Below are positions 17,603 to 31,855 of a stretch of DNA of 64,000 nucleotides, piece by piece. The notes under the pieces are model-generated. The model was not told the DNA's origin and searched no databases. It saw only the letters and a list, made by a program, of their open reading frames with translations. Each line of letters opens with the position of its first letter. Positions within the stretch are counted from its first letter, which is position 1. The DNA comes from an uncultured bacterium (GTDB lineage Bacteria; Chloroflexota; UBA5177; JANWHV01). The stretch is taken from NCBI GenBank assembly GCA_963827235.1, contig CAWHAE010000016.1, positions 1 through 64,000 on the forward strand. The letters are read 5' to 3'. Position numbers and translations under genes: made by a program.

Positions 17603-17712
17603 GCTCCAGACTCCTCCTGCTAGAAATCCTACCAGTCGGTTGGTGCTGGAGCGTTGTACTCATCCGGATAAGCCGCAAATGGCGAATCGGTTGGTGTTCG
17701 TCAGGAGAAGAG

Positions 17713-17785
17713 TGGGCCCTCTGGGGATCGAACCCAGGACCAACCGATTATGAGTCGGGAGCTCTAACCACTGAGCTAAGGGCCC
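17713..17785 (-). tRNA. tRNA-Ile2 (anticodon CAT, lysidine type); tRNA-Met less likely
   Basis: GGGCCCTTAGCTCAGTGGTTAGAGC...CTCATAA...GGTTCGATCC...AGGGCCCA cloverleaf, ileX-like. Confidence 0.9.
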
Positions 17786-20129: not shown

Positions 20130-22610
20130 ATGAAACTACCCCTCCATTGGCTCGGCTCGTACGTAGACGTCAGCCTGCCGCCGAAGCAGCTCGCGGAGAG
20201 ATTGACCATGAGCGGCACGCTGGTCGAGCGAATCGACAATACCGGCAGCCGTTTCGAAGACATTGTGGTGGCCAGGGTGCAGCGGCTGTCGCCGCATCCG
20301 AACGCCGATTCGCTGTCGCTTGCCACGCTCGACATCGGCGACAAAGTGCAGACGGTGGTCACCGGCGCGCCCAATCTGTTCGAGGGCGCGCTCGTACCCT
20401 TCATCGGAGTGGGCAAGACGCTGCCCGGGCAGGAGAAGCCGCTCGAAGGCAAGGTGCTGCGCGGCATCCGATCCGAGGGCATGGTTTGCTCGGCTCGCGA
20501 GCTGGGTCTTGGCGACGATCACAGCGGGATCTTGATCCTGGACGGCACGACTCTGCCGTTCGCGCCGGGCCGCCCGCCGGCGCCCGGTCAACCGCTCTCC
20601 GAGCTGTTCGGCGAATGGGTATTCGAGCTCGACATCACCCCTAATCGGCCGGACTGCCTGTCAATCTACGGCGTGGCGCGCGAGGTCGCGGCGGTGACCG
20701 GCGGCGCGCTGCAGCCGCTGCCGCAGCCGGACCTCACTACCGCGGCCGGCGCACCTGCGGTCACGCTCGCGATCGAGGATCCCGATCTCTGCAAGAGAAT
20801 CTCGGCGTGCGTGATCAGCGGCGTCACTGTGGCACCGTCGCCGCAATGGCTCGTCGACCGTTTGCGGTCGGCGGGAGTGCGGTCGATCAGCAACGTGGTG
20901 GACATCACCAACTTCGTCATGCTCGAGCTCGGGCAGCCGCTGCACGCCTACGACCTGGATACGCTTGCCGGACCGAGCTTGCGCGTCCGCCGAGCCCACC
21001 CAGGTGAACACATCGTTACGCTTGACGACGTCGACCGACCGCTCACCCGCGACATGCTGGTAATCGCCGACGACGCACGGAGCGTCGGCGTTGCAGGAGT
21101 CATGGGCGGACAGAACACGGAAGTGAGCGACTCCACGCGCAACATCCTCCTGGAGGCAGCCACGTTCGAGGCGCGCAACATTCGCAGGACGAGCGTCGCC
21201 CTAGGACTGCGCACCGAGGCGTCCACACGATTCGAGAAAGGCCTGCCGGCCGCTCTGGCCGGCAAGGCGGCCAGGCGAGCAGCCGCATTGATCGCCGAGC
21301 TGGGCGGTGGGCGCGTCGAGTCCGACGTGCTCTGGGTGGGAGAAGACGATCCGCCGGCGCAGGTTATCACTTTCCCGCTGGCGGAGGTGCGGCGGCTGCT
21401 GGGTGTGGACTGGCCCCCGACGCAGATCGTGGCCAACCTGCGGTCTCTCGGCTTCGGAACCGAAGACGCGGGCCCCGGTGTCGTGCGCGTCACGGTGCCC
21501 TGGTGGCGCGAGGACCTTGAGGAAGCCGCCGACGTGGTGGAAGAGGTGGCACGGGTGAGCGGCTTCGAGGCCATACCGGAGACCTTGCTCGAGGGCTCGG
21601 TGCCTCCGCGGCCGGAGTCTCCCGGTCTCCGCTACTACTGGCCGGCACGGGAAATCCTGCTTGGCTGCGGCCTCGACGAAGGGAGCAGCAGCGGGCTGAC
21701 AAGCATTCGATCCCTCGAGCTCCTGCGGCCCGCGGGCTCCGGCGAGTCCTGGTTGGCCGAGGTGCTGCCGAACTCGGGAGTGCTCACCCAGGAGCACAGC
21801 ACGTTCGCGCCGGTGCGGGTGGTCAATCCCCTGAGTCCCGAGCGAGAATACCTTCGACCCACGCTGCTCGCCGGACTGCTTGAAGCCCTGCGAGACAATC
21901 TCAGGCTCGGCGAGGAACGGGTCGCGTTCTTCGAGCTCGACGTCTGCTCGGTGATGAAAGAGGAGGGGCTGCCTATCGAGCGGCGCCTGCTGGCCGTCGC
22001 CTTGGCCGGTCTGCGTTCGAGCATGTCCTGGTCCAGCGGCCGCGAGAGCTTCGACGTGTTCGACGTCAAAGGAGTGATCGAGACGCTGCTCGAACGGCTC
22101 GGCGTGCGGCGTTGGTCGATAACGCCCCACGCTCACCCACTGCTGCATCCGGGAAGAGCGGCGCGTATCGAAGCCGGCGGCTCCGAGCTGGGTTTCGCCG
22201 GCGAGCTACACCCCACGATAGCTGAGAGATGGGATCTGCCGCCCAGGCGAGCCTACGTCGCCGAGCTCGACTTTGACGCGCTTGCCGCATGTGCTTCACC
22301 CGAGCGCACCTTCGTCGACTATCCGCGGCAGCCGGTGGCAAAGCGCGATCTCGCGGTGGTCGTGGACGCCGCTCGCTCGGCGGAGTCGGTGATCGAGGAG
22401 ATCCGCCGTTCGGGCAAGGGCCTGCTGGCCGGTGTCAGGCTCTTCGACGTCTACCAGGGCGACCCGCTGCCAGCCGGAAAGAAGAGCCTGGCCGTGGCAC
22501 TCGATTTCCAGGCCGCCGACCGCACGTTGAAGGACGACGAGCTGGAGAAGGCCATGGGACGCATTCGCCGTACCCTCGAACACCGCCTGGGGGCAGAGTT
22601 CAGGGCCTGA
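20130..22610 (+). CDS. pheT: Phenylalanine--tRNA ligase beta subunit
   Basis: HPNAD, TPNRPD, B3/4 and B5 domains, C-terminal FDX-ACB domain. Confidence 0.97.
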   Translation: MKLPLHWLGSYVDVSLPPKQLAERLTMSGTLVERIDNTGSRFEDIVVARVQRLSPHPNADSLSLATLDIGDKVQTVVTGAPNLFEGALVPFIGVGKTLPGQEKPLEGKVLRGIRSEGMVCSARELGLGDDHSGILILDGTTLPFAPGRPPAPGQPLSELFGEWVFELDITPNRPDCLSIYGVAREVAAVTGGALQPLPQPDLTTAAGAPAVTLAIEDPDLCKRISACVISGVTVAPSPQWLVDRLRSAGVRSISNVVDITNFVMLELGQPLHAYDLDTLAGPSLRVRRAHPGEHIVTLDDVDRPLTRDMLVIADDARSVGVAGVMGGQNTEVSDSTRNILLEAATFEARNIRRTSVALGLRTEASTRFEKGLPAALAGKAARRAAALIAELGGGRVESDVLWVGEDDPPAQVITFPLAEVRRLLGVDWPPTQIVANLRSLGFGTEDAGPGVVRVTVPWWREDLEEAADVVEEVARVSGFEAIPETLLEGSVPPRPESPGLRYYWPAREILLGCGLDEGSSSGLTSIRSLELLRPAGSGESWLAEVLPNSGVLTQEHSTFAPVRVVNPLSPEREYLRPTLLAGLLEALRDNLRLGEERVAFFELDVCSVMKEEGLPIERRLLAVALAGLRSSMSWSSGRESFDVFDVKGVIETLLERLGVRRWSITPHAHPLLHPGRAARIEAGGSELGFAGELHPTIAERWDLPPRRAYVAELDFDALAACASPERTFVDYPRQPVAKRDLAVVVDAARSAESVIEEIRRSGKGLLAGVRLFDVYQGDPLPAGKKSLAVALDFQAADRTLKDDELEKAMGRIRRTLEHRLGAEFRA

Positions 22611-23546: not shown

Positions 23547-25952
23547 CTACACACCCAGGTTTGCGATCGTCACGCCCTCGCCGCCTTCTCGGGCTTCGGC
23601 GCCCTTGAACGAGCTGACCAGCGGGTTGGTGGCCAGTTCTTCCCGCACAACCTGTCGCAGAGCGCCCGTTCCTTTGCCGTGAATGATACGAACAAACGGC
23701 ATGTTGGACATGAAGGCGTCGTTCAGGTAGCGCTCCAGCTCAGGCACCACCTCGTCGGCTCGCCAGCCCCGCATATCGAACTCCAGCCCCGGCGCAGGGC
23801 TCTGGCTGCGCACGATGCGCGTTCCAGAGCTCCGCGAGTCGTCGGGCTCTGCCAGATCGCCGGCGTGGGCCACGAGCTTCACGTCTTTGAGCTTCGCCCG
23901 CATTTTGAAGGCGCCTATCTGAATCTCGATCTCGCTCCGTCCCGGCGGTATGGCGGTCACGATGCCTTCCTGGCCGGTGCGCAGCACCTGAATGTGGTCG
24001 CCCACGTCAATCGCTCGTGCCGGCTGCGTTTGCACGGACGAAGCCCGCTCGATCGCGGCAGGCTTCGGCGGCTCGGCGAGTAGCTTGGCCTGCTGGTCCG
24101 AGGCGCGGTCGACCCGCTCGCGCAGAGCGGAGAGCAAAGCCGGTTGCGCCGTTCCGTGCACGCGCATCTCCGCTTCGGCTCGATCGAGCTCGCGGCGCAG
24201 ATCGATCACGCTCGCTTCAGCCTCCGCGCGCGCGGAGCGCAGAATGTCATCTCTCTCGTGAAGCACCGCTTCGACCTCGCGCTCGAGCCGCGCCCGAAGC
24301 TCGGTGGCGCGGCGCTGCGCCTCGGATGCCGCGGCGTAGAGCTCGGCCGCAGCGGTGCGATCGCGTGCTATTTGGGCCAGCATCGCCTCGACTCGCGCTT
24401 CTTCCGAGCTGATGAACTGGCGCGAGCCCTCAATGATCTCTTTGGACAGCCCCAGCCTCGACGCGATAGCCAGCGCGTTGCTGCGTCCCGGGAGCCCAAT
24501 GCTCAGCCGAAAGGTCGGCGAAAGGGTCTCGACGTCGAACTCGACACTGGCGTTTTCCACGCCCTCGGTCGACGACGCGAAAGCCTTCAGCTCGCTGTAG
24601 TGAGTAGTAGCCATGACCAGTGCTGGCGTCGTGAGGAGGTGGGTGAGCAACGAGCGAGCCAACGCCGACCCCTCGGCAGGGTCCGTCCCGGCACCCAGCT
24701 CGTCCAGGAGCAGCAGGCTGCGCTCAGTCAGAGCAGCCAGAATACGGATGATGTTCGTCAGGTGACTGCTGAACGTGCTGAGGTTCTGGGCAATGCTCTG
24801 CTCGTCGCCGATGTCGGCGAAGACGCCGTCGAACACGGCAACTCGAGAGCCCGGCTCGGTTGGGATGGGCAAGCCCGACTGAGCCATCAGCGTGAGCAGT
24901 CCGACGGTCTTCAGCGCCACCGTCTTGCCGCCCGTATTCGGGCCGGTCACGATCAGCTGTCGAAACTCGTCCCCGAGTCGCACGCTGATTGGCACAACGT
25001 GGCCGGTGAGAAGCGGATGGCGAGCCTGCACGAGCTCGAGCTGCCCGTCACCCGCTACCGCGGGAATCGTGCCATGTACCGCGCCGCCGTATCGCGACTT
25101 GGCCAGCGTGACGTCGAGCTCGGCCAGAGAGTCCACGGTGGAGAGCATCGCCGGCGCATGGACGGCGATGCGATCGGCAATGAAGCGCAGGATGCGTTCG
25201 ATCTCCTCCTGCTCCTCGAGCTGCAGCTCTCGCCAGCGGTTATTCAGCTCGCTGGTCTGGAACGGCTCGACATAGAGCGTCGCCCCGCTGGCCGAGTGGT
25301 CGTGCACCGCGCCACGGATGACGCCGCGCATATCGGATCGCACGGGGATGACATATCTGCCGTTGCGCATGGTGATGATCGGTTCCTGGATCGCCGTGCG
25401 GTAGGTCTGCGAGTTGAGTATGCTCTGCAAGCGATCCATGAGGCGCTGGTAAGCAACACGCAGGTCGGCCCGCACCTTTGCCAGGCCCGGACTCGCCGAG
25501 TCCACGATCTCGCCCTGCTGATTCACCGTCTGCAGAATGAGCGCGGTTATCTCCCTGAACACGCCCATGCGACTACGGACCTGGACCAGCCAGGGATAGT
25601 CGTCCGCGGTGAGGCGGAGCAGAGCGCCGCGGATGCGCTCGGAGCACTCCAGGGTGCCCAAAATCAACAGGAGCTGCCCGGGATCGAGCAGACCGCCCAA
25701 TGCCGCGCGCGAAATCTCGGAACGGATGTCGCTCGCCCCGCCCAGCGAGACGTCGGCTCTTGAATCAAGCAAGCGCGTCGACTCGGCGACTCGAGCGTAG
25801 AGATCGCGCACGTCGTCGGGCTCGATCGCGGGCTGCAGCGCCAGAACCATCTCTTTGCTGAGCGAGAAGCTGGCATGTGCCGCTACCTTCTCGAGCACTC
25901 GATCGTATTCGAGCGTGCGTAATGTCTTTTCGGCGATCATCGTCCGGTTCAC
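23547..25952 (-). CDS. mutS2: Endonuclease MutS2
   Basis: TGPNTGGKT, DELGAGTDP, Smr domain IIHGKGTG. Confidence 0.96.
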   Translation of the reverse strand: MNRTMIAEKTLRTLEYDRVLEKVAAHASFSLSKEMVLALQPAIEPDDVRDLYARVAESTRLLDSRADVSLGGASDIRSEISRAALGGLLDPGQLLLILGTLECSERIRGALLRLTADDYPWLVQVRSRMGVFREITALILQTVNQQGEIVDSASPGLAKVRADLRVAYQRLMDRLQSILNSQTYRTAIQEPIITMRNGRYVIPVRSDMRGVIRGAVHDHSASGATLYVEPFQTSELNNRWRELQLEEQEEIERILRFIADRIAVHAPAMLSTVDSLAELDVTLAKSRYGGAVHGTIPAVAGDGQLELVQARHPLLTGHVVPISVRLGDEFRQLIVTGPNTGGKTVALKTVGLLTLMAQSGLPIPTEPGSRVAVFDGVFADIGDEQSIAQNLSTFSSHLTNIIRILAALTERSLLLLDELGAGTDPAEGSALARSLLTHLLTTPALVMATTHYSELKAFASSTEGVENASVEFDVETLSPTFRLSIGLPGRSNALAIASRLGLSKEIIEGSRQFISSEEARVEAMLAQIARDRTAAAELYAAASEAQRRATELRARLEREVEAVLHERDDILRSARAEAEASVIDLRRELDRAEAEMRVHGTAQPALLSALRERVDRASDQQAKLLAEPPKPAAIERASSVQTQPARAIDVGDHIQVLRTGQEGIVTAIPPGRSEIEIQIGAFKMRAKLKDVKLVAHAGDLAEPDDSRSSGTRIVRSQSPAPGLEFDMRGWRADEVVPELERYLNDAFMSNMPFVRIIHGKGTGALRQVVREELATNPLVSSFKGAEAREGGEGVTIANLGV

Positions 25953-27395: not shown

Positions 27396-29498
27396 TTATT
27401 CCGGTAGCTGAAGCTGACGGTAATGCCGTCCCAGTTTGAGCACCATTCCGTGCCGCACGTCGAGCGATGCCTGCGGATCGCCGATCCGCACATCGTCGAC
27501 ATAGATCGCGCCCTCGGCGGCTTTGCGCCGAGCCTCGCCCTTTGACTTCGCCAAACCCGCCGCCACCACGATGTCTGCCAGAGGCCACGAGCCGCCACGG
27601 TCGAGGAGCACCACGGGCACCTCCGCGGGTCGCTCTCGGCGCTGCACCTCACGCTCGAACGCGGCCTGGGCCTCGGCGGTAGCCGACGCGGAGTGGTAGA
27701 GGCGCGTAATGTCATGTGCCAAGCGCTTCTTGGCGATCATGGGATTCTGACCGGATTCGAGGGCATCCGCGATCTCGTCCAGCTCCTCCAGAGGGAGTTC
27801 CGTGCACAGCTCGTAACAGGGCAGGATCTGCTCGTCGGGGAAGGACATTACCTTACCGTACATATCCTTCGCCGTGTCGTCCAGGGCAATGGAGTTCCCA
27901 AACGACTTGCTCATCTTACGGCCATCCGTGCCCAGCAGCAGCGAGCAGGTGAGCACGGCTTGCGGCGGCTGACCGAAGGCGCGTTGCAAGGTGCGGCCGG
28001 CGATGAGATTGAAGAGCTGTTCGGTGCCGCCGACCTCGACGTCGGCCTTGAGAGCGACCGAATCGTAGCCCTGCATGAGCGGGTAAAGCAGCTCTTGCAA
28101 GCCGATCGCTTGCCCAATCTCGAAGCGCTTGGCGAAGTTCTCTCGCTCCAGCATCTGCGCCAGGGTGAAGTTTGCGGCCAGACCGACCACATCCTTGAAG
28201 CGAAGCTGGCCCAACCAGTCGGTGTTGTAGCTCCACTCGACCTGTGACTCGTCGAGGATGCGCGAGATCTGCTTGCGATACGTGGTCAGGTTCTGGTAGA
28301 CCTCTTCCTCGGAGAGCATCTGGCGCATGGACGTCTTGTCCGACGCATCTCCGATCTGCGCCGTGAAATCACCGATCAGCAGGCACACGGTATGACCCAG
28401 GGCCTGGAAGGCCCGCAGCTTACGCAGAACGACCGCGTGGCCCAGATGTACGTAGGGGCTCGTCGGATCTATGCCGAATTTGACACGCAGCCGATCGCCA
28501 CGCCGCAGCCTGGCCTCTAGCTCCTCACGAATCACCACTTGCTCGGTCGCGCGATTGAGCAGGCTCGAAATGGCATCCAGCTTGCCCCACCGCAGCGGGC
28601 GCACGCGAGCCTGAGTGCTGCCGGCAGCTATTCCGGCGGGCACGGCAGCGGACACCATCGGGGTTTCGCGGGACGCCACGCCGGCCATGCGAAAACCTCC
28701 CTCTACCGGGACCGGCCGGTCCGTATGCGCGGCCGAGGCGGCGGATACCGCGCCCGCATCGCCCACGTCGTCGATTGTGGCGGCGGCATGGTCCCGGTCG
28801 AGGAAGTACGTCCGCACGCGAGCGCCGAGCAGAGACTGCAGCTCGTCTGCGAGCTGGGCCTGCGCGGCGCGCACCTCGGCGTCATTCATGCCTGTCCAGC
28901 CGTCGATGGGAAAGAGCACCGTGCGCGTGCGGGCGGTGACCTTCGAATGCTCGCTTTCGCGCCAGACCCAGCGGCGCGTACGGACCTCGAGGTCGTCGGC
29001 ATAGACGATCTCGTCCCGGTCGACGGTCTCGGCCTGGTCACTGCCCATGGGTACGAATCGAGCCCCCTCGCGGGCCGGCCCCACGACGATGTCGCCATGC
29101 AGGTGATCGATGTCGTGCGCGCCCAGCGGTAGAGAGTACTTCAATGAGATCGCGTTGGCAAGGTCGACCGCCGGATTGAGTTCGGGGAGCTGCGATCCCT
29201 TGAGCACGCGAAGGGTCAGCGCCTCGACGGAGATCTTGAAGCGATTAGCGCTCATGCCCAGCCTGCCGAACATCTCGTGCCAGACGGCAAAGGCCGGGTA
29301 TTCCTGGACGCCGGTGCCGGCGAAGCGATCGCGCGTCTGCGCCTCGGCTTGCCGCAGAAGATCGGTGATAGCCGGGTTTGGGCGGCTATTGTCAAGACCG
29401 CTCGCCACGACCAGACCAATACAGGCGTCCGGAAAGCGTTCGAGAAGCCTTGCATCAATTCGAAAGCGCATTTTACCCCTTGCGTCTGGCACTGTCAC
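27396..29498 (-). CDS. tyrS: Tyrosine--tRNA ligase with an N-terminal B3/4 domain
   Basis: GIDPT..HLGH, YPLMQGYD, KMSKS and S4 domain; first ~240 aa are B3/4-like (SVEAL..R, N..VDLANAISL...P.GAHD, RRWVWRE). Confidence 0.93.
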   Translation of the reverse strand: MTVPDARGKMRFRIDARLLERFPDACIGLVVASGLDNSRPNPAITDLLRQAEAQTRDRFAGTGVQEYPAFAVWHEMFGRLGMSANRFKISVEALTLRVLKGSQLPELNPAVDLANAISLKYSLPLGAHDIDHLHGDIVVGPAREGARFVPMGSDQAETVDRDEIVYADDLEVRTRRWVWRESEHSKVTARTRTVLFPIDGWTGMNDAEVRAAQAQLADELQSLLGARVRTYFLDRDHAAATIDDVGDAGAVSAASAAHTDRPVPVEGGFRMAGVASRETPMVSAAVPAGIAAGSTQARVRPLRWGKLDAISSLLNRATEQVVIREELEARLRRGDRLRVKFGIDPTSPYVHLGHAVVLRKLRAFQALGHTVCLLIGDFTAQIGDASDKTSMRQMLSEEEVYQNLTTYRKQISRILDESQVEWSYNTDWLGQLRFKDVVGLAANFTLAQMLERENFAKRFEIGQAIGLQELLYPLMQGYDSVALKADVEVGGTEQLFNLIAGRTLQRAFGQPPQAVLTCSLLLGTDGRKMSKSFGNSIALDDTAKDMYGKVMSFPDEQILPCYELCTELPLEELDEIADALESGQNPMIAKKRLAHDITRLYHSASATAEAQAAFEREVQRRERPAEVPVVLLDRGGSWPLADIVVAAGLAKSKGEARRKAAEGAIYVDDVRIGDPQASLDVRHGMVLKLGRHYRQLQLPE

Positions 29499-31283: not shown

Positions 31284-31355
31284 TGGGGTGTCGCCAAGAG
31301 GTAAGGCACCGGTCTTTGGAACCGGCATTCCCAGGTTCGAATCCTGGCACCCCAG
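31284..31355 (+). tRNA. tRNA-Gln (TTG)
   Basis: TGGGGTG/CACCCCA acceptor stem; anticodon arm CCGGT-CTTTGGA-ACCGG; GGTTCGAATCC. Confidence 0.96.
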
Positions 31356-31855
31356 CCCCCGGTTTCCTCTGGTGGGTGGATAGGCTGAGGGCGCGCCTGA
31401 AGCTGGGCCTGGCCCGCGGGATGTCGCGCCTGAATGCCGACTCGACGCTCCCGATCAGCCACCATTGCCGGCCTTTCGCTGTGACGACCCGGACCCCGTG
31501 GGCGCCTCGGACCCGGGGACTGACCGCCGCCATCGTGTCGACGCGACGTCATGGCAAAGGCGTGGGATCCCATGCTCAGGCCGGTGAAACACGCAAGGGC
31601 AGAATGAGCTCCGCACTTGGCGGGCCGGGAGCAACCACGGGATGCTGCCCGGGACATCGTCGCGATGTGCAGATCTCGTCGTGGACCCGCTGTGGGGCAT
31701 GGGGTCAGACACGGGGACAGGTGCCGAGGATATACGTGCCGGCAGGGATCGTGTTTGCGGCGAGAGTGGAGGCATGACGCAAAATCACTTCGCGCGATCC
31801 GGGCGGCAGGTGCGGGCGGTGCCGCGCACCCGGGCGAGCGGCAGCAGGCGGCGGG

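Follow-up and report, generated by a model that had tools for sequence, protein, structure and literature searches.

A tyrosyl-tRNA synthetase (TyrRS) gene carrying an N-terminal B3/4 domain of the CtdA deacylase family was found in a 64,000-nucleotide stretch of DNA (the window) of an uncultured Chloroflexota bacterium (assembly GCA_963827235.1, contig CAWHAE010000016.1, positions 1 to 64,000). The N-terminal domain is proposed to be a cis-acting proofreading site for tRNATyr that has been charged with a tyrosine analogue in place of tyrosine, and a probability of roughly 0.5 is given to this reading from the comparison of sequences. The main argument is that the residues expected to serve the tRNA end and the attacking water were kept in the TyrRS-fused domains while the floor of the pocket was found to track the synthetase partner; the domain would thus read an amino acid related to the substrate of its partner.

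The first-pass annotation had described a single open reading frame of 700 amino acids (aa) with a free-standing-type B3/4 domain, an Ala-rich linker of about 65 aa and a complete TyrRS with an S4-like tail, and this anatomy was borne out by the reading frame and by the Pfam and NCBIfam matches. The Pfam family B3_4 (PF03483) was found at residues 73-204 (E 1.9e-26, 93.2 bits against a gathering cut-off of 29.3), followed by the presence of tRNA-synt_1b (PF00579) at residues 335-616 (E 4e-70), SYY_C-terminal at residues 626-680 and S4 at residues 639-676. The NCBIfam model tyrS (TIGR00234) matched with 330.6 bits against a cut-off of 113.8. The linker at residues 241-305 contained 14 Ala among its 65 aa, and the GC content was uniform along the gene. 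Homologues were found to begin at Met10, as does P0002, an identical protein of 691 aa in the database, and a Shine-Dalgarno-like AAGGGG run was present upstream of this codon, so the ATG at 29471 is the likelier start and the protein is probably of 691 aa, not of 700 aa from the GTG. The fused gene is confirmed, and the interpretation first attached to it, namely a proofreading TyrRS acting on Phe, m-Tyr, DOPA or other analogues or a tethered trans-editing factor, is partly supported.

Both PF03483 and PF00579 were found in 113 of the 120 best full-length database matches to the whole protein, with a continuous frame in the relatives, and the named ones were annotated as tyrosine--tRNA ligase of Chloroflexota, Dehalococcoidales or Chloroflexia. 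The N-terminal domain was also searched alone against longer proteins, and all 120 among the matches listed carried both families. Four close homologues (73-76% identity, 681-693 aa) were found to contain the same architecture. The relatives mostly carry the fused gene and not two separate genes, the finding that would have spoken against the first-pass annotation. A set of 401 evenly sampled Chloroflexota genomes from 82 families was searched with the N-terminal domain and with the TyrRS part, and doubtful cases were inspected; the fusion was found in 25 genomes from 10 families. These 25 include the unpublished genome G226, and several of them are single-contig chromosomes (e.g. G282 and G258). 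The search with the TyrRS part gave one TyrRS match per fusion-bearing genome. The host genome (7.98 Mb, 21 contigs, 95.9% complete, 9% contamination) contained the fused protein as its sole TyrRS above the family cut-off, followed by two other weak matches far below it, and tyrosylation activity is therefore expected of the fused protein. That the fusion is genuine is regarded as practically certain from these relatives.

In a search of solved structures, the N-terminal domain was found to match CtdA (9f7e, E 9e-20; 9mkl, E 4e-17; residues 68-224 covered), whereas the beta chains of phenylalanyl-tRNA synthetase (PheRS; PheT) were matched at only about E 1e-4. Because the CtdA matches are far stronger than the PheT matches, the domain is placed in the free-standing B3/4 family rather than being taken as a duplicate of the editing domain of PheT. 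The earlier label of a PheRS-type editing domain is therefore imprecise, the position of PheT H265 also being occupied by Gly.

A domain tree was made from 193 domains of less than 65% mutual identity with the host PheT domain as outgroup; the sequence sets of this tree and of the counts given below were gathered by similarity to the query and are redundant, and their proportions should not be read as population frequencies. Clade I (46 leaves, support 0.94) was found to contain the CtdA-type sequences, including a paralogue from the host genome, together with fusions to 12 arginyl-tRNA synthetases (ArgRS), 2 class I lysyl-tRNA synthetases (LysRS) and 1 class II synthetase of the Asp/Asn/Lys type. 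Every one of the 43 TyrRS fusions fell into clade II (135 leaves, support 0.99), alongside 84 stand-alone proteins and a small subclade of ArgRS fusions. Within this one clade the TyrRS-fused leaves occupy at least four separate places. Of 206 stand-alone proteins, 160 had the His/Thr pocket signature, most of these being from Bacillota, and a scan of species-level genomes for the H128/T174/V-or-I178 pattern found a relative encoded in 567 of 600 among the matches listed. Judged from the tree and the structure matches, it is highly probable that the N-terminal domain is a member of a distinct clade of the CtdA family.

The host genome was also found to contain a stand-alone B3/4 protein of 256 aa outside the window (G000:C9:89543-90313; L006:1270-2040, + strand). 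This paralogue matched 9f7e at E 7e-49, contained the full CtdA signature and shared 33% identity with the fused domain; it is probably a canavanyl-tRNAArg deacylase. Since a canonical CtdA-type protein is encoded in the same genome, the fused domain is unlikely to be the canavanine enzyme of the cell.

The pocket residues were mapped by HMMER alignments to 9f7e and 9mkl and by the residue roles given in the CtdA papers. The pocket of CtdA contains N105, G116, E118, C166, Q173 and I189, and the editing site of PheT contains H265, G318 and E334 in E. coli numbering (PMC12449066). In CtdA, E118 and E191 form the acidic deep end that grips the guanidinium group, and the variants E118Q, E191V, Y104F and N105D were inactive (bioRxiv 2024.11.30.626143); N105A likewise kills the enzyme. 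In the window protein, Y104 was found to correspond to A114, N105 to N115, G116 to G126, E118 to H128 and C166 to T174, followed by N170 to V178, Q173 to E181, I189 to P197 and E191 to D199. The residues N105 and G116, which mark membership of the CtdA family, are thus kept. The H265 position of PheT was occupied by Gly126 and the G318 position (Q173 of CtdA) by Glu181. A specificity other than that of PheT had been predicted earlier on the ground that a PheT-like site would destroy the product of its own synthetase, and the remodelled pocket, with Gly at the H265 position and a His/Thr/Val floor, fits this prediction.

Among 139 TyrRS-fused domains, N115 was found in 136, G126 in 136, H128 in 134, T174 in 138, V or I178 in 138 and D199 in 138, followed by the presence of the rim residues R175 in 138, W177 in 138 and R180 in 136. 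The acidic floor of CtdA was accordingly lost at E118 and retained as Asp at E191, and C166 and Y104, both strictly conserved in CtdA, were likewise replaced, position 114 being A, V or G in 124 of the 139. Position 181 was Glu in the window protein and Gln in most relatives. The 18 ArgRS-fused domains were found to contain Y114 and E128 throughout (18/18), C174 in 12, N178 in 17 and E or D199 in 17, and the LysRS and class II fusions contained Tyr, Asp, Cys, Asn and Glu at positions 114, 128, 174, 178 and 199, respectively. The conservation indicates that the residues predicted for hydrolysis or 3′-end binding are under selection in the TyrRS-fused domains. The putative side-chain-reading floor varies with the partner, being acidic for ArgRS and LysRS and formed by His/Thr/Val with a small residue at the position of CtdA Y104 for TyrRS.

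The C-terminal 400 aa were found to be closest among solved structures to 6bqy (E 4e-88) and to 1h3e (E 2e-82), the latter presumably the T. thermophilus TyrRS-tRNATyr complex, well ahead of 2ts1 and the E. coli-type entries. The TyrRS parts of 51 fused proteins were compared with 18 Chloroflexota TyrRS that lack the fusion. The HIGH and KMSKS motifs and the Y472/Q476/D479 motif were kept in both sets, with Y472, Q476 and D479 conserved to at least 95% in each. The fused enzymes contained F378, D387 and N425, where the unfused enzymes contained Trp, Gly and Gln, respectively (18/18 each), and L415 in place of Val. We take D387 to lie in the GD.S.K loop beside the tyrosine site, as placed from the B. 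stearothermophilus enzyme. From the spacing of the motif we infer that D479 is the equivalent of D182 of E. coli TyrRS, which binds the p-OH of tyrosine (PMC9050441). The synthetic site of the fused enzyme looks ordinary by these residues.

In the proposed mechanism, tRNATyr would be charged at the synthetic site of TyrRS and its flexible 3′ end would swing into the B3/4 pocket, where its CCA backbone would be gripped by the Arg rim (R175, R176 and R180) and the attacking water would be positioned with the aid of Asn115. Recognition of the side chain would fall to the floor, made up of His128, Thr174, Val178 and Asp199 together with the small residue at 114. The pocket would not accept Tyr-tRNATyr, whereas it would hydrolyse tRNATyr carrying a look-alike of tyrosine that gets past TyrRS. 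The candidate substrates are tyrosines modified on the ring, for instance L-DOPA, or an antimetabolite of tyrosine that occurs in nature; azatyrosine is a natural analogue of tyrosine. In E. coli, TyrRS has only one active site and leaves Phe unactivated; it takes tyrosines with ring substituents and places DOPA where Tyr belongs (PMC9050441). As the synthetic site looks ordinary and the E. coli enzyme accepts ring-substituted tyrosines and DOPA, an unmet fidelity problem would be expected to exist. From the errors of the E. coli enzyme, the preferred candidate is an analogue of tyrosine with a modified ring, to which the His/Asp/Thr floor would respond positively while Tyr itself is rejected. 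D-Tyr and canavanine are unlikely substrates.

The stand-alone proteins of clade II may do the same job in trans. A widespread CtdA-like subfamily (H128, T174, V/I178) dedicated to proofreading of tRNATyr against a natural tyrosine look-alike, stand-alone mostly in Bacillota and TyrRS-fused in Chloroflexota, is put forward tentatively from the shared residues, as something that may well prove otherwise. If such a subfamily exists, editing would be available to TyrRS in many bacteria.

Several findings weigh against cis-acting proofreading of tRNATyr. The fusion was present in only about 6% of the sampled Chloroflexota genomes. A genome of the same genus (G127, 83% complete) was found to have lost most of the B3/4 domain through a deletion of about 666 nt (locus L034, G127:C604:3500-7800). 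The upstream 507-aa glycoside-hydrolase-like gene is kept, and the last domain residues and the linker are still joined in frame to the TyrRS (P0029), which is 75% identical to that of the window protein. Relatives of fused length were found with a degenerate N-terminal domain (P0042) or with none detected (G306). The G127 deletion and the degenerate or undetected domains elsewhere indicate that the domain is dispensable in some lineages. The stand-alone relatives were not found near a TyrRS gene, either in Chloroflexota (0 of 14 loci, ±5 kb) or in named genomes outside Chloroflexota (0 of 76 loci, flanks of up to 4 kb). Their neighbours were not conserved, the commonest being a MerR-like regulator (11 of 80 loci), followed by YbaK-like genes (4 of 80) and others that were rarer, the MerR-like and YbaK-like genes being recognised by eye from sequence. 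With no tyrS nearby and no conserved neighbours, the fusion is the only link to tRNATyr. The Y104 of CtdA, of which the Y104F variant is inactive, was replaced by a small residue, so the catalytic centre could be weak or dead. The residues F378, D387, L415 and N425 may reflect altered amino-acid selection or shared ancestry only; as the fused enzymes are largely one lineage, the differences from unfused TyrRS may be phylogenetic. A split-gene or operon link between tyrS and the stand-alone relatives was not found at these 14 and 76 loci.

The fusion might instead merely co-localise or co-regulate a tethered trans-editing factor that hydrolyses another mischarged tRNA, such as Tyr-, m-Tyr- or DOPA-tRNAPhe. 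Most members of the clade are stand-alone and must act in trans, as the characterised family members do, and the linkers of 138 fused relatives had lengths of 5-74 aa with a median of 23, the longest of which would permit free movement. Linkers shorter than 10 aa were present in 53 of the 138, however, so that in many relatives the domain is kept close to the synthetase and held against it; the floor tracks the partner in the ArgRS and LysRS fusions, which argues for a cis logic, and the host PheT retains its own B3/4 domain with His at the H265 position. A trans-editing factor of this kind is considered unlikely.

Hydrolysis might also have been lost, leaving the domain as an appendage for extra acceptor-end binding, dimerisation or regulation. 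The small residue at the position of CtdA Y104 and the lineages with a lost or degenerate domain would be accounted for in this way. TyrRS is a homodimer with the tRNA bound across its subunits, to which the domain could add dimer contacts. CtdA is dimeric as well (PMC12449066). Against this, N115, H128, D129, T174 and D199 were near-invariant over 139 fused and 160 stand-alone proteins, and the stand-alone relatives have no synthetase to assist; a non-catalytic role is held to be improbable.

Chiral proofreading, in which D-Tyr would be removed from tRNATyr, addresses the classic error of TyrRS. D-Tyr on tRNA is normally cleared by D-aminoacyl-tRNA deacylase (DTD). Because a canonical DTD (PF02580) is encoded by the host and by all of the other genomes with the fusion that were tested (5 of 5), the function is already covered and this role is decidedly improbable. 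The related idea that the domain replaces DTD was rejected as a leading one from the same genomes.

The domain might be a canavanyl-tRNAArg deacylase like CtdA that was fused to TyrRS by chance, its closest solved relatives being the two CtdA structures. One of the two canavanine-binding acids (E118) has become His, C166 has become Thr and Y104 has become Ala, a separate canonical CtdA-type protein with all these residues is encoded elsewhere in the host genome, and the CtdA signature is kept by the ArgRS-fused and not by the TyrRS-fused relatives; canavanine is for these reasons a very improbable substrate. An artefact, in which two genes were joined by a sequencing or annotation error in the linker, might be suspected from a host linker longer than the median of the relatives, and is excluded for practical purposes because the same fusion was found in many independent assemblies, including the one-contig chromosomes G282 and G258, and in the four homologues of 73-76% identity.

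The CtdA-type module was also observed in fusion with other enzymes. It was found at the N-terminus of a complete ArgRS (Arg_tRNA_synt_N, tRNA-synt_1d and DALR) in 13 of 20 long relatives scanned (P0247, P0292, P0293, P0303, P0308, P0327, P0331, P0332, P0334, P0366, P0371, P0373 and P0380), with two B3/4 domains in tandem in P0247. To our knowledge, ArgRS is regarded as being without an editing domain. The ArgRS fusions look like built-in canavanine proofreaders by their canavanine-type pocket, with Y114 and E128 in all 18 domains. The module was further found at the N- or C-terminus of class I LysRS (P0344 and P0297), N-terminal to a class II synthetase of the Asp/Asn/Lys type (P0319) and C-terminal to a GNAT acetyltransferase (P0356).

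Cis-acting proofreading by the TyrRS fusion may be one case of a broader pattern, in which TyrRS, ArgRS, class I LysRS and a class II synthetase of the Asp/Asn/Lys type would each have acquired the CtdA-type module independently as a transferable editing unit, the floor being adjusted to the amino acid of each partner; from the residues compared, this is a possible rather than a probable extension.

Further variation was observed among the TyrRS-fused proteins. One genome (G061; loci L040 and L041, contig G061:C72) was found to contain an unfused TyrRS of the window type and two B3/4-TyrRS fusions of 734 and 698 aa, of which the TyrRS part was about 25-27% identical to that of the window protein and the domain contained Asp/Cys/Val at the key pocket positions. 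The metagenomic protein P0352 was found to contain a YbaK-like editing domain, followed by B3/4 and then TyrRS. N-terminal extensions of TyrRS of about 280-350 aa were observed in G306 (L036, 666 aa), G227 (L037, 727 aa) and G371 (728 aa); no B3_4 domain was detectable in these three extensions, which are either degenerate remnants or different appendages.

In the class of the window genome, the fused TyrRS type was confined to its own genus (f1) among the sampled genomes. In sampled genomes of the families f2 and f3 of this class the TyrRS part was matched only at E 1e-30 to 1e-40, compared with about 1e-120 in remote families of the phylum; these E-values suggest that the fused gene reached the genus by transfer within the phylum. 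Two cluster look-ups for unnamed relatives gave no name beyond 'tyrosyl-tRNA synthetase'. In the ESM Atlas, where the exact window protein is absent, the homologue P0099 gave only ordinary TyrRS clusters (score 0.85) and no structure.

The fused tyrS was found to lie 19-46 nt downstream of a glycoside-hydrolase-like gene, followed downstream by the presence of a small membrane-like open reading frame, a GNAT gene and mutS2. An Rfam scan around the gene brought up a tRNA-Gln and neither a T-box nor any other element. The positions of the features are collected in Table 1.

Table 1. Positions in the window of the fused tyrS, of its domains and motifs, and of nearby genes
Feature	Position	Strand	Remark
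Whole open reading frame, fused deacylase-like domain and TyrRS	27396-29498	-	700 aa from GTG; stop codon at 27396-27398
Probable true start, ATG (Met10)	29471-29473	-	AAGGGG before it; 691-aa product identical to P0002
N-terminal CtdA-family B3/4 domain (free-standing type), residues 10-240	28779-29471	-	Pfam B3_4, CtdA structures, clade II of the tree
Asn115, putative catalytic residue	29154-29156	-	Equivalent of CtdA N105; Asn in 136/139 TyrRS-fused domains
PLGAHD motif	29112-29129	-	G126 at the position of CtdA G116 and PheT H265; alignment to CtdA
VRTRRWVWRE motif	28956-28985	-	T174 for C166; R175/R176/R180 as positive rim; W177 = W169; V178 for N170; E181 at the Q173 position; alignment to CtdA
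FPIDG motif	28899-28913	-	P197 at the CtdA I189 position; D199 at the E191 position
Linker, 65 aa	28584-28778	-	Ala/Val/Gly-rich
TyrRS catalytic (Rossmann) and helical part, residues 306-620	27639-28583	-	
HLGH (HIGH) motif	28437-28448		Class I motif
KMSKS motif	27903-27917		Class I motif
F378, D387 and N425	28355-28369, 28340-28342, 28226-28228		TyrRS residues specific to the fused clade
C-terminal S4-like tRNA-binding domain of TyrRS, residues 626-700	27399-27623	-	SYY_C-terminal, S4
mutS2	23547-25952	-	MutS_V and Smr
pheT, own B3/4 editing domain	20790-21308	+	838-aa frame; about 6 kb from the fused tyrS
tRNA-Gln(TTG)	31284-31357	+	
tRNA-Met(CAT)	17712-17785	-	

TyrRS is the standard example of a synthetase relying on its synthetic site alone, with D-Tyr errors left to a separate enzyme. 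The first B3/B4 editing protein of the stand-alone kind was reportedly CtdA, described in 2023. TyrRS is not listed among the families with an editing domain, and Table 2 of AARS Online, on the domains shared between synthetase families, is without B3/B4 (PMC11580382). A B3/4-TyrRS fusion was not found described in the literature searched, subscription journals and supplements lying outside the coverage and supplements being places where such proteins may be named. The words 'fused' and 'fusion' were absent from the main texts of PMC12449066, bioRxiv 2024.11.30.626143 and PMC10018355. A literature search for TyrRS with an editing domain in Chloroflexi gave, among the records listed, the CtdA paper, in which TyrRS is used only as a control protein. 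The database annotation of the fused proteins is plain tyrosine--tRNA ligase. Within the literature searched, the new element is the conserved joining of an established deacylase family to a synthetase for which editing is not known.

If the proofreading role holds, a new editing system would be added for TyrRS, and a tyrosine analogue that matters in nature would be indicated. It would also give a first functional lead for the large stand-alone B3/4 clade left open by the CtdA literature. The tracking of the partner by the pocket residues (acidic for ArgRS and LysRS; His/Thr/Val for TyrRS) would provide a simple rule for the prediction of substrates in the family, and the enzyme may interest engineers of TyrRS/tRNATyr pairs for non-canonical amino acids.

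Among known systems, the window domain resembles CtdA (9f7e, 9mkl) in family, in length (about 230 aa), in the catalytic Asn, in G116 (G126), in the RRW.WR rim and in E191 (D199). It differs from CtdA in being fused to a synthetase, in the changes of Y104 to Ala, E118 to His, C166 to Thr, N170 to Val and I189 to Pro, and in its separate clade (support 0.99). Because of this separate clade and the changed pocket, a substrate other than canavanine is expected. The CtdA-2 clade, found in Chloroflexi, Bacillota and archaea, is uncharacterised and another substrate has been suggested for it; the bacterial CtdA-2 proteins lack C166 and keep N105 and G116, and the identity between the published clades is about 20% (PMC12449066, 2025). 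Compared by description only, the window clade resembles CtdA-2 in its range of Chloroflexota and Bacillota and in the loss of C166 with N105 and G116 kept, and differs in the 33% identity between the window domain and the CtdA-1-type paralogue of the host. The published tree was restricted to proteins of 180-260 aa (PMC12449066), and the fusions are absent from it because of this limit.

The B3/B4 domain of PheRS beta shares with the window domain PF03483, the conserved Asn (N254) and a hydrolytic site beside a synthetase. It differs in matching only at E of about 1e-4 and in the H265 position, which is Gly in the window domain, and the window domain is expected by its family assignment to contain the CtdA-type and not the PheT-type inserts (inserts as described in PMC12449066). 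The cis-editing domains of other synthetases (CP1 of Ile, Leu and Val enzymes, those of the Ala and Thr enzymes, and INS of ProRS) provide a second hydrolytic site that clears mischarged tRNA, as is proposed here, whereas their fold differs from that of the window domain. The ordinary bacterial TyrRS (6bqy, 1h3e) were found to keep the same HIGH and KMSKS motifs and the Y/Q/D tyrosine-site motif, and the window protein differs from them in its extra 300 aa at the N-terminus; the differences at F378, D387, L415 and N425 are those of the fused clade from the 18 unfused Chloroflexota TyrRS.

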